DNA of 64,000 bases from a virus. The position numbers and the translations under genes are program-made. The stretch is from positions 1 through 64,000 of the IMG/VR virus record IMGVR_UViG_3300050821_007016; one strand, given 5' to 3'. This document shows positions 31,654 through 57,813 of the stretch, in pieces (positions within the stretch are counted from its first letter, which is position 1; the number at the start of each line of letters is the position of its first letter). The notes under the pieces are model-generated. The model was not told the DNA's origin. It searched no databases and saw only the letters and a list, made by a program, of their open reading frames with translations.

Positions 31654-33837
31654 TCACAGGGTCGAGATGTTCTCCAGGCCGGGGGCCAGCTTGAGCGCCT
31701 TGTCCACCGCGTCCATCGCGATCGTCTGCGAGGAGTGATGCTCGGGCGCCCGCGCGCCGGCCTTCGGCAGCGTCTTGAGGATCGGCAGCAGCGCGTCAGC
31801 GTGGAGCGTCTTGGCGCCGTCCACGCTACGCATGACCAAGGCGTGGCGGTAGACGTCGGCCGCGCTGTCGAACGCCATCTTGGAGTCGATCTCGCCGACC
31901 CACGGCGCGACCTCCGCGATCGCCACCCTGACGCCGCGCTCGTTGTCCTTGAGTGCCTTCAGCTGCTTCTGGAACTCAGCGGCCTGCACCTGCAGCGCCG
32001 CGTCCATCGCCGGCTTGCTCACCATGTCCTTGTCCTTCTCGTCTTTGTCCGGGAACTCGTCGCCGCCAGCCGGGCTGGCCGAGAGGTTGCTCGACGGTCC
32101 GCCCGCGGCGATGTTCTGCCATTCGGGGGGCATCATGTCGCAGACCTTCTGGATGTCGTCCTCGCCCATGCCCTTCTCGCGCAGGAAGGCTTTCATCGGC
32201 TCGGCGTCGAAACCCTTCTTCTCGCCGGACTCGGCGCCTGGCGGGAAATCCTTCTTCTGGGGCTCTGGCTTGTCGATCGGGCCGACCTTCGCGGCCTCCT
32301 CGACCTCCTCCGGCTTGCCGCCGAACGGCTCGTCAGAAGCTTCCATGCCGCTGAAGGCGTCGACGGCCTTAGCGAGGTCCTCCATCGAGGCGTCGAGCGC
32401 TATGCCCTTGCGGAGCTTGCCCTCGGCCGCCTTGCGGATGCCGGCCAGCAGGTCCTTCTTGCTGGCGTTGAAATTCTTGGTGGTGAGCGACTTGAACAGA
32501 TCGACCGGCAGCGTGATCTTCTGGTCCATCGCGATTTGCGGCGCGATCTTCGCGGCCACGTGGTTGAGGACAACCGCTGCAAACCTGGTCGGCTTAGCCA
32601 TCTCGCTCTCCTTGAGTGCCTCGTCGCCGACGACCACGTCGGGTCCGGCTCGTCCGTCTTCCACTAACGCTACGTGATTGAAAACGATGTCCCGCATCAC
32701 TCCGTCGTAGTCGGTACCACGGAAATTTCCCGGTGTCATGTCCGGCTTGTAGTGGTAGCCGGCCGACAGCTCCTGCTGCCTTCCGGTCTCTATCGCGTCG
32801 ATCGCCTCCTGCGAGTTAACGAACAGCGAGTTGTCGAGGTACTCGCCATCGAACTCCGCGTCGGTCCCGAGCGAGCCAACGGTCTCATACGGGTGATGGT
32901 CGTCCGCGCTTACGGGCACGTGTTTGATAAGCAATTGCACGCCATTCAGCGTCGGCGCGGCCTTCGCAAGCTCCTCCGGGTCCCGTAGCAAAAAGTAGAC
33001 GCGGTCGGGCTCCAGCCCGATCTCTTCCCAGCCCGGAATCTCCTCGCCGCGGTAGGGGCAAACGTTGGCCTTCGAGACGTGGGTTCGCTTGACGATCAGC
33101 CGGCCGTCGCGGGTCTTCTCGCGGACCGAGTCGCGGTCCATCGCGATCTCGAATCGCGAATCAGCGCGCGGGCCGAACGACCTGTCCATCGCCATCGCGG
33201 AGTCCTGCGCCTGACTGACTCGATCTGAGTCACTCTTCTTCGGCGTCTGCGAGTTGCAGCACGCCTTCGGCTCGATCGGCCGGTCCTCGTGGAAGTAATC
33301 GCCGAGCTTCTCGTTCAGCTCCTCGTACCAGCCGCACTTCTCGTTGCCGCCGTAGAAGCAGTTCTCGCAGCGCACCGCGCGCTCGACGTAGCCGACCTCC
33401 TCCTTGGACGCGGAACCCCCCGCGCCCTCGGCCAGCTTGCCGGCGTGCTCCTTGACGACGCCTGGGTCCGGCGTGGCGTCCGGCGTGGGCCAGGACGCGA
33501 ACTCGCCGCACGACCCGCAGTCTTCGCCGCCATCAACGGCCTCCTGCGATCCCAGCACCACGCAGAGGTCGCAGCCCTTCTTGTGCTTGCCCTCCGCCGG
33601 CATCGCGTCCTTCGGAACCAGCATCCGGCAGGCGTAGCACTGCGCGTGCTGGTCGCGCATCTCCGGCGCCGCGTTCTTCGGCGGCTCCATATACTCGAAG
33701 ATCGAGCGGTCGTTCTTGGGGGCCGATTCGTCGGCGGCGACGAACTCCTCGCCCACCTTCTTCGGAATGCCGAGCGTCGAGTGGCCGTGCGCTGCGGCCT
33801 CCATCGCGTTATGCTGCTTCTCGCTCACTGACGGCAT
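31654..33837 (-). CDS. Prohead protease/scaffold (DUF2213) with Cys-rich N-terminal extension
   Basis: SKANVCPYRGEEIPG, LLRDPEEL.KAA.T, QELSAGY, YDGVMRDI.FNHVALVEDGRAGPDVVVGD. Confidence 0.92.
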   Translation of the reverse strand: MPSVSEKQHNAMEAAAHGHSTLGIPKKVGEEFVAADESAPKNDRSIFEYMEPPKNAAPEMRDQHAQCYACRMLVPKDAMPAEGKHKKGCDLCVVLGSQEAVDGGEDCGSCGEFASWPTPDATPDPGVVKEHAGKLAEGAGGSASKEEVGYVERAVRCENCFYGGNEKCGWYEELNEKLGDYFHEDRPIEPKACCNSQTPKKSDSDRVSQAQDSAMAMDRSFGPRADSRFEIAMDRDSVREKTRDGRLIVKRTHVSKANVCPYRGEEIPGWEEIGLEPDRVYFLLRDPEELAKAAPTLNGVQLLIKHVPVSADDHHPYETVGSLGTDAEFDGEYLDNSLFVNSQEAIDAIETGRQQELSAGYHYKPDMTPGNFRGTDYDGVMRDIVFNHVALVEDGRAGPDVVVGDEALKESEMAKPTRFAAVVLNHVAAKIAPQIAMDQKITLPVDLFKSLTTKNFNASKKDLLAGIRKAAEGKLRKGIALDASMEDLAKAVDAFSGMEASDEPFGGKPEEVEEAAKVGPIDKPEPQKKDFPPGAESGEKKGFDAEPMKAFLREKGMGEDDIQKVCDMMPPEWQNIAAGGPSSNLSASPAGGDEFPDKDEKDKDMVSKPAMDAALQVQAAEFQKQLKALKDNERGVRVAIAEVAPWVGEIDSKMAFDSAADVYRHALVMRSVDGAKTLHADALLPILKTLPKAGARAPEHHSSQTIAMDAVDKALKLAPGLENISTL

Positions 33838-33850
33838 GGCGTCGCGTTTA

Positions 33851-34087
33851 TCACGCGACCCGATTCCGCACAAACCGGATGCGCTGCTCTCCGGGCAGCT
33901 TCGCCCTCGGGTTGCCCTCGTCGTCCAGGATCGACTGCACCAGCATGTCCTTGATGATGACCTTCATCAGCCTCTGGACCAGGCGCCGCCGGGAAATCTG
34001 ACGGATGCGGCAGCAGGCATCGATGTAGTTGGCCTGTTCCTCGCTCAGAGTCATTTTGACCCTGATGTCCACGTCATCTACCTCCAT
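33851..34087 (-). CDS. Ribbon-helix-helix-like DNA-binding protein
   Basis: IRVKMTLSEEQANYIDACC...ISRRRLVQRLM. Confidence 0.5.
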   Translation of the reverse strand: MEVDDVDIRVKMTLSEEQANYIDACCRIRQISRRRLVQRLMKVIIKDMLVQSILDDEGNPRAKLPGEQRIRFVRNRVA

Positions 34088-34906: not shown

Positions 34907-35695
34907 TCAGCTGAAGCCTTTGATGACCGACCGGCTCACGCAGCGGCAGTTGATCAGCGTCCCCGGCCAGATGTAGTCGTTCACCTTGGGATCGGGATCG
35001 AACCAGCCCTTCGCCGGATCGTACTCCTTGCCGGAGTTGGCGAGGTGGGTCGGGCGCGGCTCCTTGCCGCCGTGGGAGTGAAGCCAGACCGCCTTCAGGC
35101 CCAGTTCGACCTGGCGCACGCGGACGAACACTGAAGTCGCCTTGTTGTTTTGATCTCGGGCGATCAGCGCGGCGCGCGCCCGCGTCAGGTCATAGCGCGC
35201 CTCCAGCATCTTCGTCAGCGAGCCGAGGTCGCGGCCGGCGGTGACCGAGCGCATCACCAGGCCCTCGACGTCCGAATGATACTTCTGCGCGATCGAGCGG
35301 ATCAGCCCGACGTTCTCCGCGATCGTCGCCTCGTAGGCGTCGCGCATGGTGGGCGTCATGTTGAAGGCGATCGTCATCCCGGAATCGCCGAGGATGCGCT
35401 TGAGCGACGCCGCGGACCGACGCTCGGCCGACTTGGCGAACCAGCGCGCCAGCTTCGGCGCCGTCTCGTTGATCCGCTTCTCCCAGCGCTTGCCGAGGTA
35501 GGAAAGCTCGCGCTGCAGCTCCTTGGCCGGCGTCGCGTCCATCGCCAGCCGCGGCGGATTGTCCCGGTACTGCGCCTTGATCCAGTGCGCGTAGGACCGC
35601 GCCATAGCCTCGACCAGAGCCGCGATCCGGCGGCGGTAGTCGGCCTGGATGCCGGCGTTGGGGTGCACGGGCCGGAGCGGCTTACTCTTCTTCAA
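34907..35695 (-). CDS. Minor head morphogenesis protein (SPP1 gp7 / Mu gpF)
   Basis: PVHPNAGI, ENVGLIRSI, RAALIARDQNNKA, W.HS.....PRPTH, PGTLINCRC. Start uncertain (TTG 35695 or ATG 35740). Confidence 0.88.
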   Translation of the reverse strand: MKKSKPLRPVHPNAGIQADYRRRIAALVEAMARSYAHWIKAQYRDNPPRLAMDATPAKELQRELSYLGKRWEKRINETAPKLARWFAKSAERRSAASLKRILGDSGMTIAFNMTPTMRDAYEATIAENVGLIRSIAQKYHSDVEGLVMRSVTAGRDLGSLTKMLEARYDLTRARAALIARDQNNKATSVFVRVRQVELGLKAVWLHSHGGKEPRPTHLANSGKEYDPAKGWFDPDPKVNDYIWPGTLINCRCVSRSVIKGFS

Positions 35696-35888
35696 GGTCC
35701 TCGCCCTCGGCTGCGGCCTCGTAGTCGGCTCGCAGATCATCGTCCGAATCGCCGCCGAGCACCGATTCAAACGCCTCTTCCTCGGCGTCGCGATCGGCGA
35801 TCGACCGCGAGGCCTCCTCCGGCGTCATGATCGAGATCGAGCCATCAGCCATCTCACCCGGTGCCCACTTTGCCTTGTCAGAGTTCAT
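35682..35888 (-). CDS. Small, very acidic protein (candidate ART immunity/antitoxin)
   Basis: GGAGGA RBS inside the end of the ART coding region; about one third Asp/Glu. Confidence 0.55.
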   Translation of the reverse strand: MNSDKAKWAPGEMADGSISIMTPEEASRSIADRDAEEEAFESVLGGDSDDDLRADYEAAAEGEDLEEE

Positions 35889-38800
35889 GCCATTCCTCCA
35901 GGTGAATCACGGTGGTGGCGCCGGTCGACAGCGCCTGGGACAGCTTCTCTACCTTGCCAACCTTGAAATAGGTGCGTCCGGCGAAGACTACCTCATCCTC
36001 GCCGCCGTGGACCGACAGCTTCTTGATGTCGGCCGCTCGTGAACTTCCCTTGGTGGGCGTCACGACGAACCGCACGTTGCCGCTAAAGACGCCGTTCGGC
36101 TTCTTCTTGCTTGTGCTCATTAGAGCCTTTTCCTGAATGATATGGCCCTCGGCGTAGTAGGCGATCTGCTCCTGAGACAAGTTCGTGTTGCGGATGAGGG
36201 GTTCGCCCTGGTAGCTCGGCATCGACTTGAGTGCCTTGTTGACCATCGCGACGTAGACGTGCTGGGCCGGGGTCCATTTGTCGGAGCGCAGCGCGGCGTT
36301 GACCTGGCCGAAACCCCCGTCGCTATAGTTCTTTATCAGCGCGCATTCGAAGCCGGAGATCGGGTATCCGTATGCCTCGGCCTCCTTTGCATACTTCTGG
36401 AAGTCCTCGACCAGGTCCGCCTTGCCCATCATCTTCGCCAGAGCGTCGAAGCCCTCGGCCTGGGTCTCGGATATGCCGAGTTCCTTGATGTATTTCTTGT
36501 TCTTTTCGGCCTTTTCCTTGGCGAGCGCGACGGCCTTGTCCGCGAGTGCCTTTGCGTGGGCGGCTGCCTGGGCTTTCTCGGCCTCTAGCTTTGCTGCAGC
36601 TGCCTTTTGCTGTTCGCTCTGCAGCGGCTTCATTGCCTCGACGAGGTCTTTGAAGTCGTTGACCTTCTCTTGCAGCTTATCTGGCGTGGTTTTATTGAGC
36701 CACTTAGCGTTGAACTCGTTGACTAATCCTTGCGCCTTCAGGCTGTCCTGGGGCGCCCCCGGGACATATTGAATTTTCAGCGGCACATTCTTTTTCGCCT
36801 TTTCCAGCTCTCCCGCGGTCGCTGGACCGTGCTTCGTGGCAGGTGGCGGCGCTGGCGCCTTTGGTGGCTCCTGCTTGATCTCGACCTTCTGAGGCTCGGG
36901 TTTCGATTTGGCAGCCTCGGCTTTGGCCGCGGCCAGTTCCTCCGGCGTCATCTTCACGCCCTTGTATTTGGTGACGCCGCCCTCCTTGGTTTTCTCCAAC
37001 TTCATGCCGAGGGTTTTCGCCATCTGAGGCATCGAGATAGTCGGCCAGTTCAGCGCCGCCAGCATCTCCTGCGTCGTAGTCCCCTTCGTGAGCAGGTGCG
37101 CGGCGTGCTCCTTTTTCGATTTGAATGCGGGCGTCGATCCCCCGCCGCCGCCTCCAGAGGTGAACTTGCCATCTGGCGCCCGGGGATGCTTGGACTCCTC
37201 GAAGGAGGCCTCGTCAGTGGCGCCAAAAGGGCCGGCGGCATCGTTAGCCCCGCCTCCCTCTCCGCCTTGCCCGTCGGCCTCTTTCTCGAACTCGGTGGCG
37301 CTCCCTCCCGCGCCCGGCCCGAGCAGGCCCTCCTCGGCCGGCGGCTCCGGCACGTCGTCGGGGTCGAGCCCGGTATAGGGCAGGTCCGGGTCCTCGATGA
37401 TCGCCTTCCTGATCTCGCCCGGCGCCAGCGCGCCCATGTCGACGTACTTCTGGTTGCGGTCGGCGTCGTCCTTCTCCTTCTGGCCCTTCTCCGCCAGCGT
37501 CATCTCGCGCAGCGGCTTCCATGTGAAGGTGATCTCGGGGTCGATCTCGCCCCACAGCGACAGCTGCTCGAAGTTGATGATCCGCCGCAGGTTCGGGTCC
37601 AGCACCCGCTTCTGGTAGGCCGCGATCGTGTCGTCGTAGGTCTTGATCTCGCCCTCGCTCGACGCGTTCAGCCCCGAGGGCTGGATGCCGGTGAACTTCA
37701 CGAGCGGGATGCGGTGCACGCTCGCCATGTGCTCCTGCGCCTGCGCCTGCAGCTCGTGCAGCCCGCTCAGCGGCGCGGACACGTTGGCGAAGTCCTCGGT
37801 CGCTTCGTTGATCACGTAGGTGTTGGCGTTGTCGCGCATCATGTTGAACATCGCGACGCGGGACAGCATCTGCGCCGCGTTGTTGTTGTTCAACAGCGTC
37901 GACAGGTCGGTCTTGAGCACCATCACCGAGAACGAGTGGATCAGCTGCGCCACCGAGGAGCGGGTCTGCAGCCAGATGTCGACGTATGGCTTGGCCATCT
38001 CCGACAGCGATATGCCGCCGAAAGCGTAGGCCGGCTTGAGCATGTCCGGCACCGGGTGCGCGATGAACGTCTGCAGCCGCGAGCCGTGGAACTCCTTGCC
38101 CATCACGAACCAGACCTGCGGGTTGTACCAGTCCGCCCGCGTCGGGTCCCACGCGTTGTAGGCCAGCGGGTAGGTCCAGACCGGCTCGATCGTTTGCAGC
38201 CGCTTGAACGAGCCGGGCGTGACCTTGCTCCGGCTGACTGCGTCATCGGCGACGCCGGTGCCGATCGCCGTCTTCATCTCGTCCGCCGTCGGCTCGATGT
38301 TGTTGGTCCAGATGTCCAGCAGCAGGTGCGACCGGCCGAAGAAGCCGTTGTTGCGCGACTGCGCGTGGAAGCGGTGCGCGACCTCCAGCCGGAGCTGGTC
38401 GTCCTGCAGCGCCTTGACCTTGTCGGTCTTGCCGGCCTCCTTGACGCGCTTCCTCTTCTCGTCCGGATCGGCCATGCGCTCGGCGAAGCCCTCCGGGTCT
38501 TTCTCGGCCTCCTCCTGGTTGGCCTTCTCGTCGCCGACCACATCAAAATCAATCCATTCTCTCGTCGCATCGTCGGCGATCGTCTCGGCCATCACCCGAT
38601 ACTCGGGCCGCTGCGCCAGGGCGCTTAGGAAGCTGTAGCCAAGGAAGCCATTGCCGTCGCCGGGGAAGTTGTCGAAGCTGCCGCCGGCCGCCCACGCGTC
38701 GCTGCAGAAGCTGAGGTTGCCCATCAGGGCGCTGTCCATCGCCATCGACATCGTGGCCGGGACCGCAGCCTTCGGGAAATCCGGCAGCCGGAACGGCGAG

Positions 38801-39333
38801 TTGTCCCTGGTGCGCTCGACGCGCTGCGAGTAGCGCTCGAAGACCTCGGTGATCTGCGGCAGCATCTCCATCCAGCGGTTGGGATCGACCTTATCTTTTG
38901 GCTCGGCTGGTACGGTTTCCGACATGATAGACGTAGGAGCCGGAGATGCTGGCGTTATCGGTGCTTCTTCTGATTTATGGTGGCGAGCGCCGCCCCATTG
39001 GGGGCCATGATGAACCTTCTTGATCTTAAGATGCTCTCTGAACATCTTTGCTTCGATCGCTTCGATCACCTCTAGCGGCGTTTTGCTTACCCATTCCCCT
39101 ACCGTTTTGGCGTCCGTTTTCAGGTCGGAGATTATCTCCCATTCGAACCGAGTAGCCGTCTCCTGGTCGGGCATCTCATAGGCGGCGAAAATCTTCAGCT
39201 TATGGCCGTTGCCGGTCTGCAGCTGCCGAAGCCTCTTGTCGATGTCGCGGTAGGTGAGGCCGATTTTGGTAACGCGGTGACCGCGAGAACGCGCGATGAC
39301 GTAGAGCTTGGGAACCTCGACCGTTTCCGTCAT
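35878..39333 (-). CDS. Portal protein (DUF1073) fused to N-terminal GIY-YIG and C-terminal wHTH plus ADP-ribosyltransferase domains
   Basis: LYVI...TKIGLT...RLRQLQTGN...E...GEW (T5orf172-type GIY-YIG). FLGY..L..LAQRPEYR, IEPVWTYP, LKPAYAFGGISL, IPLVKFTGIQPSGLNASSEGEI (portal). Y...F..VNAALR, LIR, MSTS, EDEVVF (R-STS-ExE ART). Confidence 0.9.
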   Translation of the reverse strand: MTETVEVPKLYVIARSRGHRVTKIGLTYRDIDKRLRQLQTGNGHKLKIFAAYEMPDQETATRFEWEIISDLKTDAKTVGEWVSKTPLEVIEAIEAKMFREHLKIKKVHHGPQWGGARHHKSEEAPITPASPAPTSIMSETVPAEPKDKVDPNRWMEMLPQITEVFERYSQRVERTRDNSPFRLPDFPKAAVPATMSMAMDSALMGNLSFCSDAWAAGGSFDNFPGDGNGFLGYSFLSALAQRPEYRVMAETIADDATREWIDFDVVGDEKANQEEAEKDPEGFAERMADPDEKRKRVKEAGKTDKVKALQDDQLRLEVAHRFHAQSRNNGFFGRSHLLLDIWTNNIEPTADEMKTAIGTGVADDAVSRSKVTPGSFKRLQTIEPVWTYPLAYNAWDPTRADWYNPQVWFVMGKEFHGSRLQTFIAHPVPDMLKPAYAFGGISLSEMAKPYVDIWLQTRSSVAQLIHSFSVMVLKTDLSTLLNNNNAAQMLSRVAMFNMMRDNANTYVINEATEDFANVSAPLSGLHELQAQAQEHMASVHRIPLVKFTGIQPSGLNASSEGEIKTYDDTIAAYQKRVLDPNLRRIINFEQLSLWGEIDPEITFTWKPLREMTLAEKGQKEKDDADRNQKYVDMGALAPGEIRKAIIEDPDLPYTGLDPDDVPEPPAEEGLLGPGAGGSATEFEKEADGQGGEGGGANDAAGPFGATDEASFEESKHPRAPDGKFTSGGGGGGSTPAFKSKKEHAAHLLTKGTTTQEMLAALNWPTISMPQMAKTLGMKLEKTKEGGVTKYKGVKMTPEELAAAKAEAAKSKPEPQKVEIKQEPPKAPAPPPATKHGPATAGELEKAKKNVPLKIQYVPGAPQDSLKAQGLVNEFNAKWLNKTTPDKLQEKVNDFKDLVEAMKPLQSEQQKAAAAKLEAEKAQAAAHAKALADKAVALAKEKAEKNKKYIKELGISETQAEGFDALAKMMGKADLVEDFQKYAKEAEAYGYPISGFECALIKNYSDGGFGQVNAALRSDKWTPAQHVYVAMVNKALKSMPSYQGEPLIRNTNLSQEQIAYYAEGHIIQEKALMSTSKKKPNGVFSGNVRFVVTPTKGSSRAADIKKLSVHGGEDEVVFAGRTYFKVGKVEKLSQALSTGATTVIHLEEWHEL

Positions 39334-39390: not shown

Positions 39391-39870
39391 TCAATGCCGG
39401 CGATGATGCCGCGGGCACGCTACCTGGTACCCGAAGGGCCATCCGACGTAGCAGATTTCAGAGCCGCCTCCGCCCGATCCGCCACTGTAAGCGCCACCCG
39501 AACCGCCACCAGCGCCGCCAGCTCCACCGCCTCCACCACCAGCTCCAGCGCCAGCGCCGCCTCCCGCGCCTCCAGAGCCAGCTCCCGCGCCGCCTCCTCC
39601 ACCAGCACCGCCGCCACCTGAACCTCCACCGCCGCCAGCGCCCGCGCCTCCGCCTCCTGAACCCCCTCCAGAACCGCCACCGCCGCCTCCTGAGCCGCCT
39701 CCGCCTCCCCCGCCACCTGACCCGCCCCCTCCGCCGCCGGAGCCACCACCGGCCCCGCCACCGCCACCAGCGCCGCAACCAGCGCCGCCTCCCCCACCGC
39801 CGCCCCCGTGCGCGAGCGCGGGGCCGGCCAAAAGGATCAGCGTGAGGGTAGCGGCGAGGAGCTTCTTCAT
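39391..39870 (-). CDS. Secreted glycine-rich protein
   Basis: Start ATG 39870 with GGAGG RBS; MKKLLAATLTLILLAGPALA| then >100 aa of Gly/Ala/Ser, ending ICYVGWPFGYQVACPRHHRRH. Confidence 0.7.
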   Translation of the reverse strand: MKKLLAATLTLILLAGPALAHGGGGGGGGAGCGAGGGGGAGGGSGGGGGGSGGGGGGGGSGGGGGGSGGGSGGGGAGAGGGGGSGGGGAGGGGGAGAGSGGAGGGAGAGAGGGGGGAGGAGGGSGGAYSGGSGGGGSEICYVGWPFGYQVACPRHHRRH

Positions 39871-39974
39871 ATCCAGCCTCCAGTAAGCCAGTGCGCGATG
39901 ACCAGCACCGCGATGACCACGAGCACCCAGAAGCCGAAGGCGACCAGGGCGGCCTCGCGGTCGTTCAGGTCCAT
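39867..39974 (-). CDS. 35-aa single-TM protein
   Basis: MDLNDREAALVAFGFWVLVVIAVLVIAHWLTGGWI; overlaps both neighbours. Confidence 0.55.
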   Translation of the reverse strand: MDLNDREAALVAFGFWVLVVIAVLVIAHWLTGGWI

Positions 39975-40393
39975 CAGGACGCGGTTGCGACGATCTGGAC
40001 AGAACCGAGGACTTGCGGCGCGGCGTCGACCTCAACGTCGATCAAGGCCGAGAAGCTGGCACCGCCCACCGCTAGCGCGACGCTGACGACGTCGGTTCCG
40101 GCCGCGAGCGCGACGCCGGTGGCCGTCAGGCCGTCCGCGGACGCCGTGACCGTCTCCGTGGCAGGCGTGGTGTTCGTCCAGGCCGGGGCCGCGTCGGGCT
40201 TCGGCGTGACGATCATGGGATTGCCGTTCGTGTCGAAGAACGCCAGCGAATACGCGACCGAGTGACCGACCGTTACCTTGATGCCCATGATGTGTCTCCG
40301 ATTCGGGTGAGGATGATGGTGATGCCGAACGTGCGCGATGATTACCACACTTTTCAAGACCTGGCGGCGACGGTGGAGGAATTGACTCAGCAT
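39974..40393 (-). CDS. Ig-like (Big_2-type) domain protein with His-rich leader
   Basis: D.NGNP...W......TV..SADGLTA.....G...V.V. Two in-frame starts with RBS (40393 and 40288). Confidence 0.65.
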   Translation of the reverse strand: MLSQFLHRRRQVLKSVVIIAHVRHHHHPHPNRRHIMGIKVTVGHSVAYSLAFFDTNGNPMIVTPKPDAAPAWTNTTPATETVTASADGLTATGVALAAGTDVVSVALAVGGASFSALIDVEVDAAPQVLGSVQIVATAS

Positions 40394-42084: not shown

Positions 42085-42105
42085 CTTAGGAACTTTTTTC
42101 CCCAA
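42085..42105 (-). promoter_or_regulatory. Operator-like repeat TTGGGGAAAAAAGTTCCTAAG
   Basis: 20 bp identical to 57791-57810; intergenic, upstream of the head/tail genes. Confidence 0.7.
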
Positions 42106-42215: not shown

Positions 42216-43886
42216 TTAAATCCGGCCGGCCCGCGCGATCTGCTGCAGCATCGATCCGGTCACCTCGATCGGCTCCGGCGGCATCGGCGCGTAGCGGATC
42301 ACGACCGCGTCCGCCTGGTTCGGGCTCTTGGTGCCCTCCGGCTTCTTTTCGATCACGATCTTGCCGAGGTCGTTCTGCTTGTAGGTCGCCTGCGACAGCT
42401 CCGCCACCAGCTTCATCAGGTTCGGGTTGTTGCGGCTGAGCGAGACCATGTCGTCGACCTTGCACGGCGTGCCCTCGGCGCCGCCGGTCTCCATGTGCCG
42501 CACGGCGCGGTAGGTCTTCTGAAATCGCTTCCGCAGCGCCCACCACGATTGTGCCTTGTGGTTGGCGAAGTAATCCTCGTTAGTGCGGCCGGTGTCTCCC
42601 GAGAGGCCGATCGTGCCCTCGACGATGCCCTCCGGGTCCACCACACCCACCGAGCCTCGGTAGCCTATGGCCTTGACCATCCGAGCCTTGGCCCGCTGGC
42701 GCCGCTCGTTGATCACCCTGGAGTCGCCGCCCACGCCAGCCCCGAGGCCGTCGGCGTCGTAGCGGAACTCGGTCAGCTCGTGGTCATCGCAGAGGTCGAA
42801 CACGTACTCCGTCGACGAGAAGATGTCCGAGCCCTTGCCGCTCCACTCCTCGGTCTCCAGCACCTCGATGCCCTTGCAGATGCAGACCGCGTTCTTGTCA
42901 TCGCCCTCGTCGGCCACGTCGAACGCGATCGCCTTGCGCCCAGCCGGCGCGATGCCGAGCTTCTCGCAGGCGCCGATCGCCGCGCGCACCCAGATGCCGG
43001 GGATCACCACGCCCTTGACAGAGGCCGCGTAGTCGCGGTCGATCTCCTGCGCCACCACGACCGGGTCTAGCTCCGCGCACTGCTTGTCGTACCACGCCTG
43101 GTCCTTCCGAGGGTCGTCGCGCCAGTCGAAGATGAACACGTCGATCTTGCCGCCCCAGCGCTTCTGGGCGAACGGGTTCGCCATGCCGCGCACCGACGAC
43201 ATGTCGATCCGGCAGTTGGTGGTCTGCGACAGCGAGGCCTCGACCAGCTCGGGCCGCGGCAGATGGGCCGCCTCGTCCACGAAGTAGATGCTGGTGCGGT
43301 CGCCGCGGCCGATGTCGTCGCCGCCTTCTCCCGCGATCAGCGAGCCGGTGTTCGGGAACGTGATCCGCATGAACGGGGCGTCGCGCCACGCCACCCAGTC
43401 GCCCTTGAACTCAATGGGCAGGTTTTCCATGAAGGTCCGGCCCTTGGGGAAGATAGGCTTGAGCGTACCGATCTTGTCGACGTACTCGCCCTTGCGCGAA
43501 CCGAACCCGATCGACAGCCCCTCGTAGAGCAGGCAGAGCGTGCATGACAGCGCCATCGACAGCCAGGTCGCGCCCACGTCGCGGGACTTCTCGATCAGGC
43601 CGGGGCGGCGGTTGCGCCACTTGTCGATCACGTACTCGACGAACTCGCGCTGCTTCGGGAACATGATGAAAGGGATCGCCGCCGGCAGGCCGATCTCGAC
43701 GTTGCGCGGTTCGTGCATCATGCCCCAGTCGCAGATGAAGTCGGCCGGCGCGGTGCGGTAGTGGTCCATGTAGGCCGGCACGACCTCGGGGTGCTCGCGC
43801 AGCCGCTTCAGGTTTTCCATGCGGGTGTTCATCGCCAGCGCGTAGTCGGGGTTCTTCCAGTCCCACTTGATCGGCTTAAGCAACAT
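42216..43886 (-). CDS. terL: Terminase large subunit
   Basis: IEKSRDVGATW (Walker A-like), YFVDEAAH (Walker B), FDVADEGDD and YDADGLGAGV (RNase H fold), KSPNQADA. Confidence 0.95.
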   Translation of the reverse strand: MLLKPIKWDWKNPDYALAMNTRMENLKRLREHPEVVPAYMDHYRTAPADFICDWGMMHEPRNVEIGLPAAIPFIMFPKQREFVEYVIDKWRNRRPGLIEKSRDVGATWLSMALSCTLCLLYEGLSIGFGSRKGEYVDKIGTLKPIFPKGRTFMENLPIEFKGDWVAWRDAPFMRITFPNTGSLIAGEGGDDIGRGDRTSIYFVDEAAHLPRPELVEASLSQTTNCRIDMSSVRGMANPFAQKRWGGKIDVFIFDWRDDPRKDQAWYDKQCAELDPVVVAQEIDRDYAASVKGVVIPGIWVRAAIGACEKLGIAPAGRKAIAFDVADEGDDKNAVCICKGIEVLETEEWSGKGSDIFSSTEYVFDLCDDHELTEFRYDADGLGAGVGGDSRVINERRQRAKARMVKAIGYRGSVGVVDPEGIVEGTIGLSGDTGRTNEDYFANHKAQSWWALRKRFQKTYRAVRHMETGGAEGTPCKVDDMVSLSRNNPNLMKLVAELSQATYKQNDLGKIVIEKKPEGTKSPNQADAVVIRYAPMPPEPIEVTGSMLQQIARAGRI

Positions 43887-44058
43887 TCCAGGGACCAAAA
43901 TCGTTGGCGATTGGCCAGAACGCCCCGTCGGATACCGGCCACCGAAAGCAGGCGATGGTCACGGTCGAGCCCGCGGTTATGATCCAGCGCAGCCTGAACT
44001 CGGCGATCGCCTGGTTCGACGCGTCCTTCCATGCCGGGTAGAAGAACAGGTCGATCAT
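43876..44058 (-). CDS. Hypothetical protein
   Basis: ATGA-coupled; GGTGAGG RBS. Confidence 0.45.
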   Translation of the reverse strand: MIDLFFYPAWKDASNQAIAEFRLRWIITAGSTVTIACFRWPVSDGAFWPIANDFGPWNVA

Positions 44059-48611: not shown

Positions 48612-48674
48612 CCCACCCCACAATTCAGTGGACATCTAGCCGAAACCACGCATTTATTGTCCTGCGATTTGGCG

Positions 48675-48687
48675 ACTTTTTTCCCCA
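48675..48687 (-). promoter_or_regulatory. Operator-like repeat TGGGGAAAAAAGT
   Basis: Between a TGGACA box (48629) and the DUF932 start. Confidence 0.6.
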
Positions 48688-48734
48688 GATCGGCCCGGCG
48701 GCAATTAAGCCTTCCGGCCCAGCAGGAGATACCC

Positions 48735-49946
48735 ATGCTAGACGTCACCAAGAGCAGCGAAACCAGCACGGCCTACCGAGTCGACCCGACCCGCGGCGGC
48801 CACAACGGCGAGGTCTCGATGCAATGGATGGCCCGCCCCGCGGACCAGCGATTCCTCTCCCTCGATGACCTCCACGACTACAAGCGCCAGTTCTGGATGG
48901 GCGCTTTCCAGACCAGAGCCAAGACCGACGCCTTCGAACTGATCGCCCCGGAGATCAAGGAGCAGGCGGACCTGCACCGCCTCACGGTCGGAGTCACCGT
49001 CGACCTCGGCGACACCAAGGACGCCCGCGAGATCGCGCCGACGCACTGGGCCTTCGGCCAGCTCGCCGGCCTCGCGAAGTCCCCGGCCTCCTTCCTCCGC
49101 GAATTGCCTAGCCCGCTCGTCAGCGACGTGCTGACCTGGAGGCTTCGCCATGCGCGCGAGATCGAGGAGGTGAAGTTATATGGCGGCTCCACCGAGCTAT
49201 ACGCGGCGACCGGCCCCGACTACGGCCGCATCCCCGACTTCGAGGTGGTGGAGGCGGTGCGGCAGGTCGCGGGCAGCGGCCGCGGCGAGATGCGCTGGAA
49301 GATTCCCGGCGTGCTCGACTGGAACACCAACATGTACAACCCCGACGCGCCGGTCACCAAGGACTCGACCAGCCTCTACGCTTCGGATCGGGACGTCTTC
49401 ATGTTCCTCGTCGACGATCGCAACCCGATCGAGGTCGGCAAGCTGGCGTCCGGCGAGCCCGATTTGATGTTCAGGGGTTTCTACATCCAGAACAGCGAGA
49501 TGGGATCGCGCAGCCTCAAATTGGCGTGCTTCTATCTCCGCGCGGTCTGCATGAACCGCAACCTCTGGGGCGTCGAGAACTTCGACGAGATCAAGATCAA
49601 CCACACGCGGCTCGCCCCGGATCGCTGGCTGCAGCAGGCGGTCCCCGCGCTCAACTCCTACGCCAGCGGGTCTTCGGACAAGCTGATCGAGGGCGTCAAG
49701 CTGGCGAAGGCGACGAAGGTCGCCGACGACCATGAGAAGGCCGTCGAGTTCCTCACTGCCCGCAAGTTCTCCCTATCGAAGGCCAAGTCGATCTTGGAGC
49801 AGGGCGAGAAGGAGGAAGGCCACCCGCCGCGCTCGGCTTGGGATTTTGCTCAAGCCATTACTGCCAATGCCCGCAACGCCCTGAACACCGACGACCGGCT
49901 GGAGCAGGAGAAGCAGGCCCAGGCGATCCTCGACAAGGTCGCCTAG
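48735..49946 (+). CDS. DUF932-family protein
   Basis: AGGAG RBS; QWMARPADQRFLSL, PTHWAFGQLA, TGPDYGRI, LYASDRDVF.FLVD, FRGF...NSE.G, VCMNRNLWG. Confidence 0.85.
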   Translation: MLDVTKSSETSTAYRVDPTRGGHNGEVSMQWMARPADQRFLSLDDLHDYKRQFWMGAFQTRAKTDAFELIAPEIKEQADLHRLTVGVTVDLGDTKDAREIAPTHWAFGQLAGLAKSPASFLRELPSPLVSDVLTWRLRHAREIEEVKLYGGSTELYAATGPDYGRIPDFEVVEAVRQVAGSGRGEMRWKIPGVLDWNTNMYNPDAPVTKDSTSLYASDRDVFMFLVDDRNPIEVGKLASGEPDLMFRGFYIQNSEMGSRSLKLACFYLRAVCMNRNLWGVENFDEIKINHTRLAPDRWLQQAVPALNSYASGSSDKLIEGVKLAKATKVADDHEKAVEFLTARKFSLSKAKSILEQGEKEEGHPPRSAWDFAQAITANARNALNTDDRLEQEKQAQAILDKVA

Positions 49947-49964
49947 TTTCAACCCCCAAACTCG

Positions 49965-49992
49965 GCGCCCGCTTCGGCGGGCGCTAATTTTT
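49965..49992 (+). terminator. Intrinsic terminator
   Basis: GCGCCCGC-TTCG-GCGGGCGC then TAATTTTT. Confidence 0.8.
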
Positions 49993-50009: not shown

Positions 50010-50519
50010 GTGACGCTGAGGATCGAATGCGCGGCCGAGGGCTTCTTCTCAATCAAGCTGCGCGAGGTCGAGATCGAGACCGCCCCCCACACGGGGCGGA
50101 CCTACTACATCCACGGCGGCCGGATCATCGCCGTCGCAACCAGGGAAGAGAACGATGACGAACCAGAAACTAGATCAAGCGTTGGCCTTCCTGCAGGGCC
50201 GAAAGCTGGACGCGATGCTACTCGGGCCGGCCGATCGGATCACGGAGAACCAGAGCGTAAGCGATCAGGCGGTCGAATTGTTGGAGCAGATGCTTCCGGG
50301 CCAGAAACTCATGGTGGCGGACGGATTGCCGCCCACCGCGATCATCGCCCCGGAGGAGAGGAAGAACGCGTGGAAAGGCAAGCGGCCTCGACCCACGCAC
50401 TCGATGCACTTCGAACAATCTTCGAAGAAGGAGGAGGACCCGGCGACCAGAAAGCTCCGCAAGGAGCTGGCCGACGCGGAGGCGAAGAAGAAGGCCGAGC
50501 GCTTAGCGCGGCTGAATGA
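50010..50519 (+). CDS. Hypothetical protein (3' two-thirds overlaps the next gene)
   Basis: Strong AAAGGAGG RBS; only the first ~50 aa look protein-like. Confidence 0.35.
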   Translation: MTLRIECAAEGFFSIKLREVEIETAPHTGRTYYIHGGRIIAVATREENDDEPETRSSVGLPAGPKAGRDATRAGRSDHGEPERKRSGGRIVGADASGPETHGGGRIAAHRDHRPGGEEERVERQAASTHALDALRTIFEEGGGPGDQKAPQGAGRRGGEEEGRALSAAE

Positions 50520-50907
50520 ACTCAAACAGGCGGCCAAGGCTGCCGCAACCCCGAAGGAGAGTACCATGAGTGCTGCTACCCACCACACCACCACGAAGGC
50601 CGATCAGGTGAAGGCCTTGCGCGTCAAGCGGGCGACGACCAAGGCCGCACCCAAGAAGGCCGCACCGGCGAAGCCGGCTAAGGCCAAGCAGACCGCAAAG
50701 GCGATCCCAGGCATCCGTCCTGGTTCCAAGTTGGAAATTGTGGCCGGCCTGTTGACCCGCAAGGAGGGTTGCACCACGGCCGACGTCCTCAAGGCCACCG
50801 ACTGGCCGGCGGTCTCGATGCCGCAAATGGCGAAGTCGGCCGGGCTGAAGCTCCGCAAGGAGAAGGCCAAAGGGGAACCCACCCGGTATTATGGGACGGC
50901 GGCTTAG
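50155..50907 (+). CDS. Lys/Ala-rich protein with C-terminal DUF3489-like wHTH
   Basis: RPGSKLEIVAGLLTRKEGCTTADVLKATDW...GLKL...TRYY; internal AAGGAG-ATG start at 50566. Confidence 0.7.
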   Translation: MTNQKLDQALAFLQGRKLDAMLLGPADRITENQSVSDQAVELLEQMLPGQKLMVADGLPPTAIIAPEERKNAWKGKRPRPTHSMHFEQSSKKEEDPATRKLRKELADAEAKKKAERLARLNELKQAAKAAATPKESTMSAATHHTTTKADQVKALRVKRATTKAAPKKAAPAKPAKAKQTAKAIPGIRPGSKLEIVAGLLTRKEGCTTADVLKATDWPAVSMPQMAKSAGLKLRKEKAKGEPTRYYGTAA

Positions 50908-50932
50908 GAGGCTCGCTGGTGCGTTTAGAATG

Positions 50933-50960
50933 GCCGGGGCTAGGTGGCCCCGGCTTTTTC
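50933..50960 (+). terminator. Intrinsic terminator at a convergent junction
   Basis: GCCGGGGCT-AGGT-GGCCCCGGC then TTTTTCGTT. Confidence 0.8.
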
Positions 50961-51293
50961 GTTCGGGCGCACGTACAGCCAGCGCCGCTCGATAGGGCGG
51001 CCTTCCACGCTGGCCCGATTGATACCCTGGAGCATCCCCTGGCTGATCCCCCGGTCGCAATAAACCACCGTCGCCTCGGCGGCGATCCCCCAGGCCAGCC
51101 CAGCCTCAATCCCGAGCGCGCGCTCCTCGGGCCGGGCGTCGTCAAGAATCCCCGGCCACAAGAGGTGACTCGCGAGTGGGCTTTCGTTTCGCAGCAGGCT
51201 GTCGAGCATCGCCTCCCGCGCGTACTGCTTGTTTCGTTCCGTTTCCATTGGCGTGCTGCCGCGAAACGGCGACTCGAGGATTACGCGTCGCAT
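50940..51293 (-). CDS. Nucleoside deoxyribosyltransferase-like fold protein
   Basis: VILESPFRG...N..YAR....DSL.R.E.P.ASHLL....LDD..PEER..GI.AG..W.......VY.DRGIS.GM. Confidence 0.7.
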   Translation of the reverse strand: MRRVILESPFRGSTPMETERNKQYAREAMLDSLLRNESPLASHLLWPGILDDARPEERALGIEAGLAWGIAAEATVVYCDRGISQGMLQGINRASVEGRPIERRWLYVRPNEKAGAT

Positions 51294-52599
51294 CCTTGCC
51301 TCCCTTTCGTGCTTTGGTGATCTCGGCGAACGTGCGGCCATCGCCGGCCAGGACAGCTTCGGCCTTGGCGAAGGTCTGCCAGCGCTCGATGCAGACGTCG
51401 ACATAAGCCGGGTTGATCTCGATCGCGATCGCGTAGCGGTTCATCATCTCGGCTGCGATGATCGTGGTGCCGCTGCCGGCGAATGGCTCATAGACATAGT
51501 TGCCGGGCTTGCTGTTGTTCTGGATCGGGCGGCGCATGCACTCGATCGGCTTTTGGGTGCTGTGGCCTGTCTCCGAAGCCCGGTGTTCGATGTCCCACAT
51601 CGTAGTCTGCTTGCGATCTCCGGACCACGCGCCCGTGGCGCCTTTGCGAACCAGATACCAGCACGGCTCGTGAGCCCAATGGTAGTCGCCTCGGCCGATG
51701 ACCATCCGTCCTTTATTCCAGATAATCTGAGCGCGGACCTCGAAGCCCACAGATCGAAAAGAAAGATCGACGCTGCTGGCATGCCGACCGGCATGCCAGC
51801 AGTAAGCGACGTTGCCAGGAAACAGACTCCATGCCTCTCGCCAGTCCGATTGATCGTCGTTCTCGACTTTTCCGATCGCTCTCGCGCCGATTGGCTTGTC
51901 CGCTTTCCCGCTTCTTAGACGCTGAAAACCCCCATTGAGTGTTCGGCCGGCTTCGTTGCGCCAGTTTGCATCATACTCAACGCCATAGGGAGGATCGGTC
52001 ACCATCAGATGCGGCTTCTTGCCATCCAGCACGCGCTCGACGTCCTCGGTCTTGGTGCTGTCGCCGCATAAGATCCGATGCTTGCCCAGCTGCCACAGAT
52101 CGCCGACGCGGCTGATTGGTTTGACCGGCGGCTCCGGCGTGGCTTCGGGATCGGCGCCGTTCGGCACCGACAGAAACGATACCAGTTGCACATCATCGAA
52201 GCCGAGCAGCGGCATTTCGTAGCCGGCCAGCGACAGCTCGCTCAGTTCAATCCGCAGCAATTCTGGTGACCATGTCGACAGCAGCGCATAGCTGTTGTCC
52301 TTGATCCGATAGGCCCGCTTCTGCTCCTCGCTCCAGCCGCGCGCCACTACGACCGGGTATTTCGCGAAAGCATTTTTCTCCGCGGCCAGCCGGCGGCCGT
52401 GGCCGTAGATGATCACGCCTTCCTCATCGACCAGGATCGGCGAGGTAACGCCGTCGTCCTTCATCGAGCCCGCGATCAGATCGACCTGCTCTGGCGAATG
52501 CTGCCGCGGATTCCCGGGATACGGGATGATGCGCTCCAGCGCCCACAGCTCGGTCTTTGACGCAGGCCACGACTCTTCCATCGCCTTCGGTTTTTTCAC
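51142..52599 (-). CDS. ParB-N domain plus N6/N4 DNA methyltransferase
   Basis: PYPGNPRQH...PILVD...GHGR..AA; WQLGKHRILCGDS; TDPPY; HSTQKP; EPFAGSGTT. Start re-called to GTG 52599. Confidence 0.92.
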   Translation of the reverse strand: MKKPKAMEESWPASKTELWALERIIPYPGNPRQHSPEQVDLIAGSMKDDGVTSPILVDEEGVIIYGHGRRLAAEKNAFAKYPVVVARGWSEEQKRAYRIKDNSYALLSTWSPELLRIELSELSLAGYEMPLLGFDDVQLVSFLSVPNGADPEATPEPPVKPISRVGDLWQLGKHRILCGDSTKTEDVERVLDGKKPHLMVTDPPYGVEYDANWRNEAGRTLNGGFQRLRSGKADKPIGARAIGKVENDDQSDWREAWSLFPGNVAYCWHAGRHASSVDLSFRSVGFEVRAQIIWNKGRMVIGRGDYHWAHEPCWYLVRKGATGAWSGDRKQTTMWDIEHRASETGHSTQKPIECMRRPIQNNSKPGNYVYEPFAGSGTTIIAAEMMNRYAIAIEINPAYVDVCIERWQTFAKAEAVLAGDGRTFAEITKARKGGKDATRNPRVAVSRQHANGNGTKQAVRAGGDARQPAAKRKPTRESPLVAGDS

Positions 52600-52788
52600 A
52601 GCGGATACCTCTGCGCGGAGTAATAGACCCTCGGCTTGCGCCGCCTCGGTGGCTTGTAGCTCATCAGGATAGCGCCGCGTCGCGCCAAGAGTAGAAGTGC
52701 AGGTCATCACGAAAAACGACCAAACGACCATCCTCAACATCATATGCCGCGCGATAACCGCGAACAATTGCAATCAATTTCCACAACA

Positions 52789-57459: not shown

Positions 57460-57735
57460 CTAGCCTTCGTCGAATCCCTTATCCACTTTTTTCCCCAACT
57501 TCGGCACCGGGGCCGTCCTCGGCCAGGGGGTGCCGCGGGGCCACTTCGAGCGCATCCGGTTCACCATCAGGAAGTACGTCTTGATCGTCGTCGACATCGA
57601 CCCGGCCAGATACTTCTCAAGAAACTGGTGATTCCCATGGATTTCCTTGCTGACGGTTGCCAGAGCCCATCCCCGCGCGTTGGCGTAGGTCTGGGCCAGG
57701 ACCATCAAGTTTTGGCGCATTATCTCCTCGGACAT
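57460..57735 (-). CDS. Cro-like HTH regulator
   Basis: L..LA..YA.A.G..LATVS......FL....G...T.........WP....WP; first gene of the leftward replication operon. Confidence 0.65.
   Translation of the reverse strand: MSEEIMRQNLMVLAQTYANARGWALATVSKEIHGNHQFLEKYLAGSMSTTIKTYFLMVNRMRSKWPRGTPWPRTAPVPKLGKKVDKGFDEG
57485..57498 (-). promoter_or_regulatory. Operator-like repeat TTGGGGAAAAAAGT within the 3' end of cro
   Basis: Exact match to the core motif. Confidence 0.55.
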
Positions 57736-57784: not shown

Positions 57785-57813
57785 TGGACATTGGGGAAAA
57801 AAGTTCCTAAAGT
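57785..57813 (+). promoter_or_regulatory. Early promoter TGGACA-N17-TAAAGT whose spacer is the operator-like repeat
   Basis: Sigma70-like geometry in the divergent gap. Confidence 0.7.

Follow-up and report, generated by a model that had tools for sequence, protein, structure and literature searches.

The portal protein of an uncultured phage (74.6 kb, direct terminal repeats) carries, in a single reading frame, a predicted winged helix-turn-helix (wHTH) module of the DUF3489 type and an ADP-ribosyltransferase (ART) domain. A homologous module forms the C-terminus of a small protein whose gene lies 13 kb from the portal gene. We consider it probable, though well short of certain, that this portal is a polyvalent head protein with wHTH-ART cargo that is cut free and ejected, and that both modules share a ligand, likely duplex DNA. 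The features discussed are located (Table 1) within the window, which is the whole stretch of 64,000 nucleotides of phage DNA that was analysed.

Table 1. Positions of the portal, stand-alone and neighbouring features in the window
Feature	Coordinates	Strand	Remarks
Head maturation protease gene (DUF2213)	31654..33873	(-)	phrog_2229, E 3e-109; PF09979
MuF-like head morphogenesis gene	34907..35770	(-)	immediately after portal gene
Portal ORF (P0001)	35878..39333	(-)	1151 aa, single stop-free frame
R-S-E ADP-ribosyltransferase (ART) domain	35881..36486	(-)	residues about 950-1151
Helical stalk	36487..36816	(-)	residues about 840-949, one helix of about 68 residues
Linker, Pro/Lys/Ala-rich, predicted disordered	36817..36906	(-)	residues about 810-839, pLDDT 40-51
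Embedded predicted wHTH module, DUF3489 type	36949..37131	(-)	residues 735-795
Junction tag SFEESKHPRAPDGKF, then Gly run	37138..37206	(-)	residues 710-732, immediately ahead of wHTH
Portal core, Phage_portal_3	37453..38631	(-)	residues 235-627
MUG113 / GIY-YIG-like N-terminal domain	39040..39306	(-)	residues 10-98, in-frame fusion
Large terminase subunit gene	42216-43898		
DUF932-family gene	48657..49946	(+)	directly upstream of stand-alone gene
Terminator-like hairpin	49964..49985	(+)	between DUF932 gene and stand-alone gene
Stand-alone gene (P0002)	50155..50907	(+)	250 aa
Stand-alone predicted wHTH module, DUF3489	50710..50904	(+)	residues 186-250
Terminator-like hairpin	50932..50955	(+)	3' of stand-alone gene
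ParB-like + N6/N4 DNA methyltransferase gene	51142..52773	(-)	convergent with stand-alone gene

A predicted winged helix of the DUF3489 type in the portal extension

Positions 36950-37125 (minus strand) translate to FKSKKEHAAHLLTKGTTTQEMLAALNWPTISMPQMAKTLGMKLEKTKEGGVTKYKGVK. The AF2 model of the portal module has a pLDDT of 80 when the module is modelled alone and above 90 within the context of the extension, and its elements follow the order helix-helix-helix-strand-strand (H10-20, H24-31, H38-45, E47-54 and E57-64). VIA-align was used for fold comparison because Foldseek searches with the 70-residue module model yielded only weak E-values. Essentially all of the top 50 VIA matches are wHTH proteins (Z 4.6-6.9), the best being DriD (Z 6.9), and the top matches from VIA and Foldseek are DNA-binding wHTH proteins. 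For a 60-residue domain, VIA Z-scores of this size (6.9 at best) are middling. The model indicates a wHTH fold in which three helices are followed by a beta-hairpin wing. In a remote-homology study, DUF3489 was assigned to the winged-helix class, SCOP a.4.5 (PMC4520260 supplement).

The sole Pfam match of the portal module is to PF11994 (DUF3489), at 12.1-12.6 bits (E 0.15-0.22) and below the cut-off of 29.5. The stand-alone module scores 29.3 bits by hmmscan of the protein and 30.4 bits in a six-frame genome search, relative to this gathering cut-off. PF11994 is the recurrent Pfam match in 18 of 20 modules. A profile representing both module classes retrieved 1690 cluster representatives, and PF11994 was detected in 104 of 106 new profile matches. 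By transitive homology, through these matches and an alignment to the stand-alone protein at E 9e-12, the portal module appears to belong to DUF3489. Both window modules fall in a divergent branch of the family that carries WP-x-V-S-M-P-Q-Q-A-K, at the place where other members (G029 and, loosely, G035) carry G-W-Q-x-H-[ST]-x-R-G-F, the usual DUF3489 form. A small stand-alone protein is the usual setting of a DUF3489-type domain, and a literature search on DUF3489 found a mention in one paper and no experimental work on any member. DUF3489 also recurs next to methylase and packaging genes in many phages.

The two window modules are probably old paralogues

The original prediction held that the portal extension contains a copy of the wHTH domain encoded at 50155-50907. 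The resemblance itself is borne out by pairwise statistics, since BLASTP aligns portal residues 739-793 with residues 191-248 of the stand-alone protein (30/58 identical, 52%, E 9e-12) as the sole significant alignment of the two proteins. When either module was compared by tblastn with all six frames of the window, only the other module was retrieved (E 2e-12), and matches beyond the two had E >1. Given these values, the similarity is real and far beyond chance. The WPxxSMPQMAK segment is indeed identical in both modules. As a signature, WPxxSMPQxAK characterises the sub-family as a whole and not the window pair in particular; in a set of 138 modules, non-redundant at 80%, W33 and A42 are conserved at 100%, P34, S37 and P39 at 95-96%, and K/R43 at 88%.

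The word 'copy' does not hold in its recent sense. A recent intragenomic duplication or gene conversion, by which one window module was made from the other, might be suspected from the identical SMPQMAK segment and from the lower GC3 of both segments compared with the head genes (0.78-0.85 vs 0.91-0.94). However, the two window modules share only 49% protein and 61% DNA identity, and mean identities are 62% among portal modules, 64% among solo modules and 43% between the classes. Among cross-class pairs, the window pair ranks just 4th of 93 and 9th of 40. The portal module shares 95% identity with its counterpart in the portal of a relative (P0005), and not with the solo module of its own genome. 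In a quick tree, a single branch (SH-aLRT 95) splits 40 embedded from 93 stand-alone modules and places the window modules on opposite sides, a two-clade split that may partly reflect sampling because the modules were collected by similarity to the two window proteins. On the identities, the cross-class ranks and this branch, recent duplication was rejected as extremely improbable. These comparisons indicate that the window modules are old paralogues, not a fresh copy.

The module resides in a conserved cassette that ends in an ART domain

The portal ORF matches PF06381 (Phage_portal_3; E 6e-68, 229.5 bits, profile positions 3-355 of 357) and the portal family phrog_146 (E 2e-88). Scores of 23.5 bits for PF13455 and 24.3 bits for PF03496, the latter above its cut-off of 23.4, were also obtained with this ORF. 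The portals of relatives lack the MUG113-like domain and begin to align only at residue 113-140; no start codon was found in the portal ORF where these relatives' portals begin. The MUG113-like, portal, wHTH and ART regions share one ORF, situated between the terminase gene and the MuF, protease and capsid genes, with the head protease gene two genes downstream of the portal. The protein has at least two unrelated effector-type domains in a virion-gene context, which is how Iyer et al. 2017 delimit phage polyvalent proteins by domain content.

The cassette runs in the order HPR..GKF tag, wHTH, disordered linker, helical stalk and R-S-E ART. As originally proposed, the module is attached to the ART, being encoded in the same frame about 250 residues upstream of a domain that retains the R, STS and ExE residues. 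A survey of wHTH-ART fusions recovered the cassette in about 40 homologues, either portals or other multidomain proteins, and the module is present in 40 of the 83 homologues of the portal extension. In four domain-mapped portal-ART homologues, the module precedes the ART by about 200-350 residues and follows the HPR..GKF tag wherever the tag is found. This tag has the pattern FxExxHPRxxxGKF plus a Gly run, and is present as a single copy within the window. Of the 83 homologous portal or multidomain proteins, 74 contain it in 1-3 copies, and every copy sits at a junction between modules. The tag was not found in a literature search.

The ART catalytic residues are R1048 (IRNT), S1073 (STS) and E1112-D-E1114; among 31 homologues R1048, S1073 and E1114 are invariant and E1112 is near-invariant. 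Foldseek matches the domain to Tre1 (6DRH, E 6e-10, TM 0.76-0.79) and also to XopAI, C3 and SpvB, with a probability of 1.00 for Tre1, C3, SpvB and iota toxin. The domain is an R-S-E ADP-ribosyltransferase of the C3 / VIP2 / Tre1 type with its catalytic residues intact.

The stand-alone gene and the distribution of both modules

The stand-alone protein is basic and consists of a short N-terminal motif, a charged coil, an Ala/Lys/Pro-rich linker and the C-terminal wHTH, which is the extreme C-terminus in all 96 homologues. No solved structure was matched in a PDB sequence search with this protein, and no related loci were found in viral contigs. Its gene neighbours (DUF932 and ParB-methylase) point to possible early expression, as had been assumed when the gene was described as early. 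The ParB-methylase neighbour is also present in G040 and G035.

Three of the four near-complete genomes with the portal module also have the stand-alone wHTH at the same locus. The stand-alone copy is of the WPxVSMP subtype in two of the three with both modules, and none of the seven solos from relatives without the portal module belongs to this subtype, a comparison that involves tiny numbers and related genomes. In G021 (90% complete) the portal module is present and a stand-alone copy absent, seven relatives have the stand-alone copy only, and G035 pairs a portal module with a canonical-type solo. The pairing is therefore frequent and not obligatory. A metagenome search yielded nine loci, with flanks too short to reach the stand-alone locus. 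A contig search with portal-type modules yielded no prophage host to name, its matches being limited to a stand-alone protein from a Sulfuritalea MAG and a second, weak match. Cultured phages yielded no relative of the module or of the stand-alone protein, and their ART matches were confined to weak ones in four Pseudomonas phage records.

A link of the modules to the TGGGGAAAAAAGT sites was also considered. This 13-mer occurs in four exact copies vs 0.46 expected, each pointing toward a downstream gene, and it is missing from three related module-carrying phages (G021, G009 and G020) and present once in G005. The link was abandoned, and the 13-mer rejected as a module target, on its absence from those three phages and on the promoter-like placement of its copies ahead of unrelated genes.

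A candidate mechanism and its alternatives

We propose that the portal wHTH serves as an N-terminal targeting or anchoring domain of the ART cargo. Within the capsid, twelve cargo copies would be bound to the DNA at the portal crown, the head protease would cut them free from the portal, and the freed cargo would leave with or on the DNA. A portal-fused domain can exit the capsid only after being cut off, and the head maturation protease is a candidate for this step. Delivery from the virion is suggested by analogy with predictions for portal- and MuF-fused effectors, as these are presented in the portions of PMC5512222 and PMC9503650 that treat such fusions.

In both classes, conservation peaks in the turn and third helix (WP-x-V-S-M-P-Q-x-A-K), the segment with the highest information content of the module, and on this basis the two module-bearing proteins would most likely share one kind of ligand. 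The most probable ligand would be duplex DNA, bound without strong sequence preference. DNA binding is suggested by the predicted fold, by the positive charge (net about +6 for the portal module and about +5 for the stand-alone module, as counted from sequence) and by the flanking Ala/Lys/Pro-rich linkers. The original description of both as the same DUF3489-like DNA-binding module stands insofar as these are homologous wHTH modules of DUF3489 type, while its DNA-binding part rests on fold and charge.

The third helix (M-P-Q-M/Q-A-K-T/A-L/A) contains few of the polar and basic side chains with which bases are usually read, and its near-invariance across many different phages would be explained equally well by a conserved protein partner or by non-specific DNA binding. 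The module might be a protein-binding adaptor by which the ART and, independently, the small protein are each docked on one conserved host protein, possibly of the cell-division machinery. The putative recognition helix hardly varies among hundreds of unrelated settings in phages and bacteria and is Met/Pro/Ala-rich, unlike operator-reading helices. Also, an N-terminal D-I-P-A-F-L-R-R, a pattern identical to the FtsZ C-terminal tail, is present in 43 of the 202 small family members, and the best structural and second-best sequence match of the ART is Tre1, which reportedly ADP-ribosylates FtsZ. However, the FtsZ-like peptide of the stand-alone protein itself is degenerate (DGLPPTAII), and likeness among R-S-E ARTs says little about substrate. 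Moreover, all fold neighbours bind DNA, and the modules are strongly basic with histone-H1-like linkers alongside. We regard the adaptor function as unlikely. A related proposal is that one winged helix acts on one target in two phases, being injected with the ART and then taken over or displaced by the newly made small protein, which we judge quite doubtful. A sharper form of it, in which the target is the cell-division apparatus and not DNA, is suggested by the FtsZ-tail-like peptides and the Tre1-like enzyme.

The extension could instead stay on the portal, where twelve winged helices and the long helices would grip or detect the DNA end packaged last, a role for which the P22 portal barrel offers a comparison, and where the ART would be secondary or act in the producing cell only. 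The C-termini in solved portal structures point into the capsid interior, and both the 68-residue helix and the position of a DNA-binding fold directly behind the portal core suit such an arrangement. Yet this wHTH-stalk-ART arrangement is also found in large proteins that lack a portal domain (P0068, P0072, P0078 and P0080), and in close relatives (L006) an unrelated helical segment takes the place of the wHTH while portal and ART are kept. The HPR..GKF tag at every module junction is likewise expected of separable cargo. We find permanent tethering rather improbable. The stand-alone protein might also compete with the delivered cargo, occupying the same sites and displacing or limiting the ART as a timer or antidote. 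A binding face common to both modules would allow this, and the co-occurrence and subtype matching described above point the same way. However, those tiny numbers come from related genomes, so common descent may account for the pattern. Solos of the WPxVSMP type (hundreds of clusters) far outnumber the portal modules (about 40-50), and G021 and G035 break the correspondence. We consider competition very unlikely.

Comparison with known systems

The cargo reading that we prefer bears on a general question, since capsid-carried effectors that act before phage gene expression have been widely predicted by genomics, rarely tested, and never for portal fusions. The cassette is a compact, conserved case of an enzyme with its own candidate targeting domain. 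The same genome offers a free small-protein version, which provides an experimental handle in the form of two natural versions of one binding module. Work on this pair would give a first functional foothold on DUF3489, which spans at least 1690 sequence clusters without a characterised member. If the module only binds DNA non-specifically, the result would extend the list of polyvalent head proteins only modestly.

DUF3489 (PF11994) domains in general are wHTH domains of roughly 60 residues and usually C-terminal in small proteins. By its Pfam score the stand-alone copy falls right at the threshold; the portal copy differs in scoring 12.6 bits, well under 29.5. The phage ART resembles Tre1 of Serratia proteamaculans (6DRH/6DRE; TM 0.76-0.79, rmsd 2.7-3.1, 24% identity), and its best sequence match is Vis of Vibrio splendidus (4XZJ; phmmer 5e-7, compared with 1e-5 for Tre1). 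The R, STS and ExE positions of both are conserved in the phage domain. Unlike the phage protein, Tre1 and Vis are secreted toxins without a wHTH or portal.

T4 Alt is made late, travels in the head and acts as soon as the next infection begins. It is a separate protein with a capsid-targeting sequence, and is not known to have a portal fusion or a wHTH. By the summary description in PMC5512222, Alt resembles the proposed cargo as a capsid-packaged ART injected with the DNA.

The closest likeness in organisation is to the phage polyvalent proteins (Iyer, Burroughs, Anand, de Souza, Aravind 2017, PMC5512222; Iyer et al. 2022, PMC9503650), which also place unrelated domains behind a head-structural domain in terminase-portal packaging. 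The portions of these two papers that deal with such fusions describe ART and Nudix domains fused to portals, predict that portal and MuF effectors are packaged and injected, and give as rare dsDNA-binding domains the FtsK wHTH, Rho-N/SAP, HTH and histone fold. DUF3489 is not among the domains given in those portions, and the wHTH described here differs further in forming a fixed cassette with the stalk and ART. Portal-ART fusions have already been predicted in the literature.

Relatedness of the portal and stand-alone winged helices

The original prediction held that the extension of the portal P0001 (residues 700-1151, after the core) contains a copy of the winged helix-turn-helix (wHTH) domain of P0002, a 250-residue product of another gene in the window. 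The observation stands, and its interpretation is supported in part. The portal segment translates exactly as had been given, and BLASTP aligns it with the wHTH of P0002 at 30/58 identities (E 9e-12). These are the only two copies of the module detected in the window by six-frame tblastn.

The term 'copy' did not hold up when 40 embedded modules, from large portal or other multidomain proteins, were compared with 93 from small stand-alone proteins. Mean identity is 62% among embedded modules, 64% among stand-alone modules and 43% between the classes. The window's own pair has 49% identity (61% in DNA), which puts it 4th of 93 and 9th of 40 in the list of cross-class pairs. The module in one relative's portal matches that of the window's portal at 95% identity. 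A single branch sets all embedded modules apart (SH-aLRT 95) in a quick IQ-TREE search on a sample seeded from both window proteins. Even with a tree and sample of this kind, the two classes stand as sister clades with an old split. Each clade holds one of the window's own modules, and neither module was freshly copied from the other.

Modelled with AlphaFold2 from an alignment of 35 relatives, the 70 residues of the portal segment form three helices followed by two strands (mean pLDDT 80); within a model of the whole extension (pLDDT 85), this segment exceeds pLDDT 90. In an all-against-all structural search the leading matches are all DNA-binding winged helices (DriD, Z 6.9, then NolR, SmtB, MecI, MarR and others), with which Foldseek weakly agrees. 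Against PF11994 (DUF3489), the stand-alone copy reaches 29.3 and 30.4 bits, right at the gathering threshold, and the portal copy just 12.6 bits. With a profile built from both classes, 1690 cluster representatives were retrieved; of 106 that were new, 104 are PF11994. Within the literature searched, only PMC4520260 mentions DUF3489; its supplement places the family in the SCOP winged-helix superfamily by remote homology, and no experimental study of a DUF3489 member was found.

Organization of the portal ORF and its extension

The portal ORF encodes 1151 residues without a stop, in a source IMG/VR record of 74,647 bases that has direct terminal repeats and is rated complete.

Features of the portal region, the stand-alone gene and the repeated motif in the window
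Feature	Position	Strand	Basis or remark
Portal ORF (P0001)	35878-39333	-	
MUG113 / GIY-YIG-like (T5orf172-type) domain	residues 10-98; 39040-39306	-	Pfam/PHROGs; in-frame fusion to portal N-terminus
Phage_portal_3 core, full	residues 235-627; 37453-38631	-	Pfam/PHROGs, 229 bits
Junction tag	37138-37206	-	single copy in window; directly 5' of winged helix
Embedded winged helix	36950-37125	-	translation; BLASTP against P0002
Extension (span used for GC3)	35881-37236	-	
ADP-ribosyltransferase (ART) domain	portal C-terminus	-	Pfam/PHROGs
Head protease gene	31654-33873	-	
214-residue ORF	39391-40035	-	immediately upstream of portal
P0002 gene	50155-50907	+	
TGGGGAAAAAAGT copy	42092-42104	-	directed at downstream gene
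TGGGGAAAAAAGT copy	48675-48687	-	directed at downstream gene
TGGGGAAAAAAGT copy	57485-57497	-	directed at downstream gene
TGGGGAAAAAAGT copy	57792-57804	+	directed at downstream gene

The ART assignment is convincing: R1048, S1073 and E1114 are invariant across 31 homologues, Foldseek gives probability 1.00 to Tre1, XopAI, C3, SpvB and iota toxin, and phmmer matches Vis and Tre1. A search with the extension alone recovered 83 homologues on contigs of up to ~77 kb. Almost all have a portal core and a length of 1000-1900 residues; an ART is present in most, a Nudix domain in many and the wHTH module in 40. The module lies ~200-350 residues upstream of the ART in the four portal-ART homologues with mapped domains. 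A tag, [FW]-x-E-x-x-H-P-R-x-x-x-G-K-F followed by a Gly-rich stretch, occurs in one to three copies in 74 of the 83, always at module junctions, and no description of it was found in the literature searched. The cassette of tag, wHTH, linker, stalk and ART is also seen in large proteins lacking a portal domain.

In a related genome, the 1603-residue portal at L006 (1110-5921, +; core 63% identical) keeps the Nudix domain, a kinase-like segment and the ART, and an unrelated helical segment replaces the winged helix. Because the winged helix is swapped in such close relatives while the portal, Nudix and ART stay, the extension is made of exchangeable modules. In the L006 phage, the orthologue of P0002 (L007 1480-2238, -) belongs to another wHTH subtype, GWKKCRVTLRR.

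GC3 is 0.94 in the portal core, 0.71 in the MUG113 part and 0.78 in the extension (wHTH 0.85, stalk 0.76, ART 0.79), and is likewise low in the ParB-methylase gene (0.71). The low value of the extension is consistent with mosaic gain of cargo modules. Portals of relatives start at the equivalent of residue ~113 (M-x-W-G-G-x-R-P-G), where the window ORF has no start codon; the MUG113 part may be a homing-endonuclease-like gene that was captured, or else the true portal start may be M137.

The 214-residue ORF begins with a signal-peptide-like stretch, MKKLLAATLTLILLAGPALA, followed by ~150 residues that are nearly pure Gly/Ala/Ser. The first 306 of the 1119 positions of phrog_30637 match the portal and positions 674-939 match the head protease, and therefore some phages have one polypeptide for both.

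The stand-alone gene and its pairing with the portal module

Of 96 homologues close to P0002 in length, 93 contain the module, and in these a short N-terminal motif, a charged coil and an Ala/Lys/Pro-rich linker precede a winged helix at the extreme C-terminus. The P0002 gene comes after a DUF932 gene, is convergent with a ParB-methyltransferase gene and is flanked on both sides by terminator-like hairpins; the stand-alone gene also lies beside the methylase in the related genomes G040 and G035. These neighbours suggest a putative early or accessory region.

Near the N-terminus, 43 of 202 small family members (P0107-P0286) carry D-[IL]-P-[AD]-F-L-[RK]-R (for example LEIPAFLRR), and P0002 has a degenerate version, DGLPPTAII, at the aligned place (50320-50346). 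In the literature searched, most papers with the string IPAFLR concern FtsZ and cell division; this string is the FtsZ C-terminal tail. Tre1, the closest solved relative of the portal ART, is reportedly an FtsZ-modifying toxin.

Pairing was compared among the near-complete IMG/VR genomes with a portal module, namely the window, G040, G035 and G021. In the window and in G040, the portal module is accompanied by a stand-alone protein of its own subtype, WPxVSMP. The portal module of G035 is likewise WPxVSMP-type, and at the same locus beside the ParB-methylase this genome encodes a small (~66 residues) H-S-x-R-type DUF3489 protein (L117, about 1459-1683, -). No stand-alone protein was found in G021 (90% complete). 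P0004/P0088 and P0082/P0092 may be two more pairs, as the contigs within each have the same length. Seven relatives lacking the portal module have stand-alone proteins, all of other subtypes, and WPxVSMP-type stand-alone proteins far outnumber portal modules. The subtype pattern hints at matched pairs in these few, mutually related genomes; pairing is common, not obligatory.

Candidate ligands and a proposed role

The original prediction also named the TGGGGAAAAAAGT sites as targets on which to test both domains. A link between the module and these sites finds no support. The four exact copies are real (0.46 expected), but each precedes an unrelated gene in the manner of a promoter element, and three related phages have the module and lack the motif. 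TGGGGAAAAAAGT looks like a phage-specific promoter element. The copies at 42092 and 57792 have ~20 more bases in common (TTCCTAAG.TGGCG).

Among 138 modules, non-redundant at 80%, WPxxSMPQMAK is a signature of the whole branch rather than of this pair: W33 and A42 are invariant, P34, S37, P39 and G46 are 95-96% conserved, and no element carries more information than the turn plus third helix. This helix varies unusually little and has few base-reading residues, a character that fits non-specific DNA binding and a conserved protein partner about equally.

Solved portal structures are dodecamers with C-termini pointing into the capsid, and therefore the crown should bear twelve copies of the extension, close to the DNA that is packaged last. 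The portal is followed, two genes further downstream, by the gene for the head maturation protease; together with the junction tags, this makes cargo release through that protease plausible. The winged helix most likely holds the cargo on DNA, and would do so inside the capsid as well as during entry or later, the predicted ligand being the weak point of this proposal. We judge that the free protein would use the same putative binding face for its own purpose.

Comparison with known systems

A polyvalent portal with an ART is a kind of system already predicted: passages of PMC5512222 and PMC9503650 predict, from genomic analyses, packaging and injection for ART and Nudix domains that are fused to portal or MuF proteins. 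New here are the assignment of the candidate targeting domain to a divergent DUF3489, the clean split between this domain and the stand-alone clade, and the recurrence of the stand-alone paralogue at a fixed locus.
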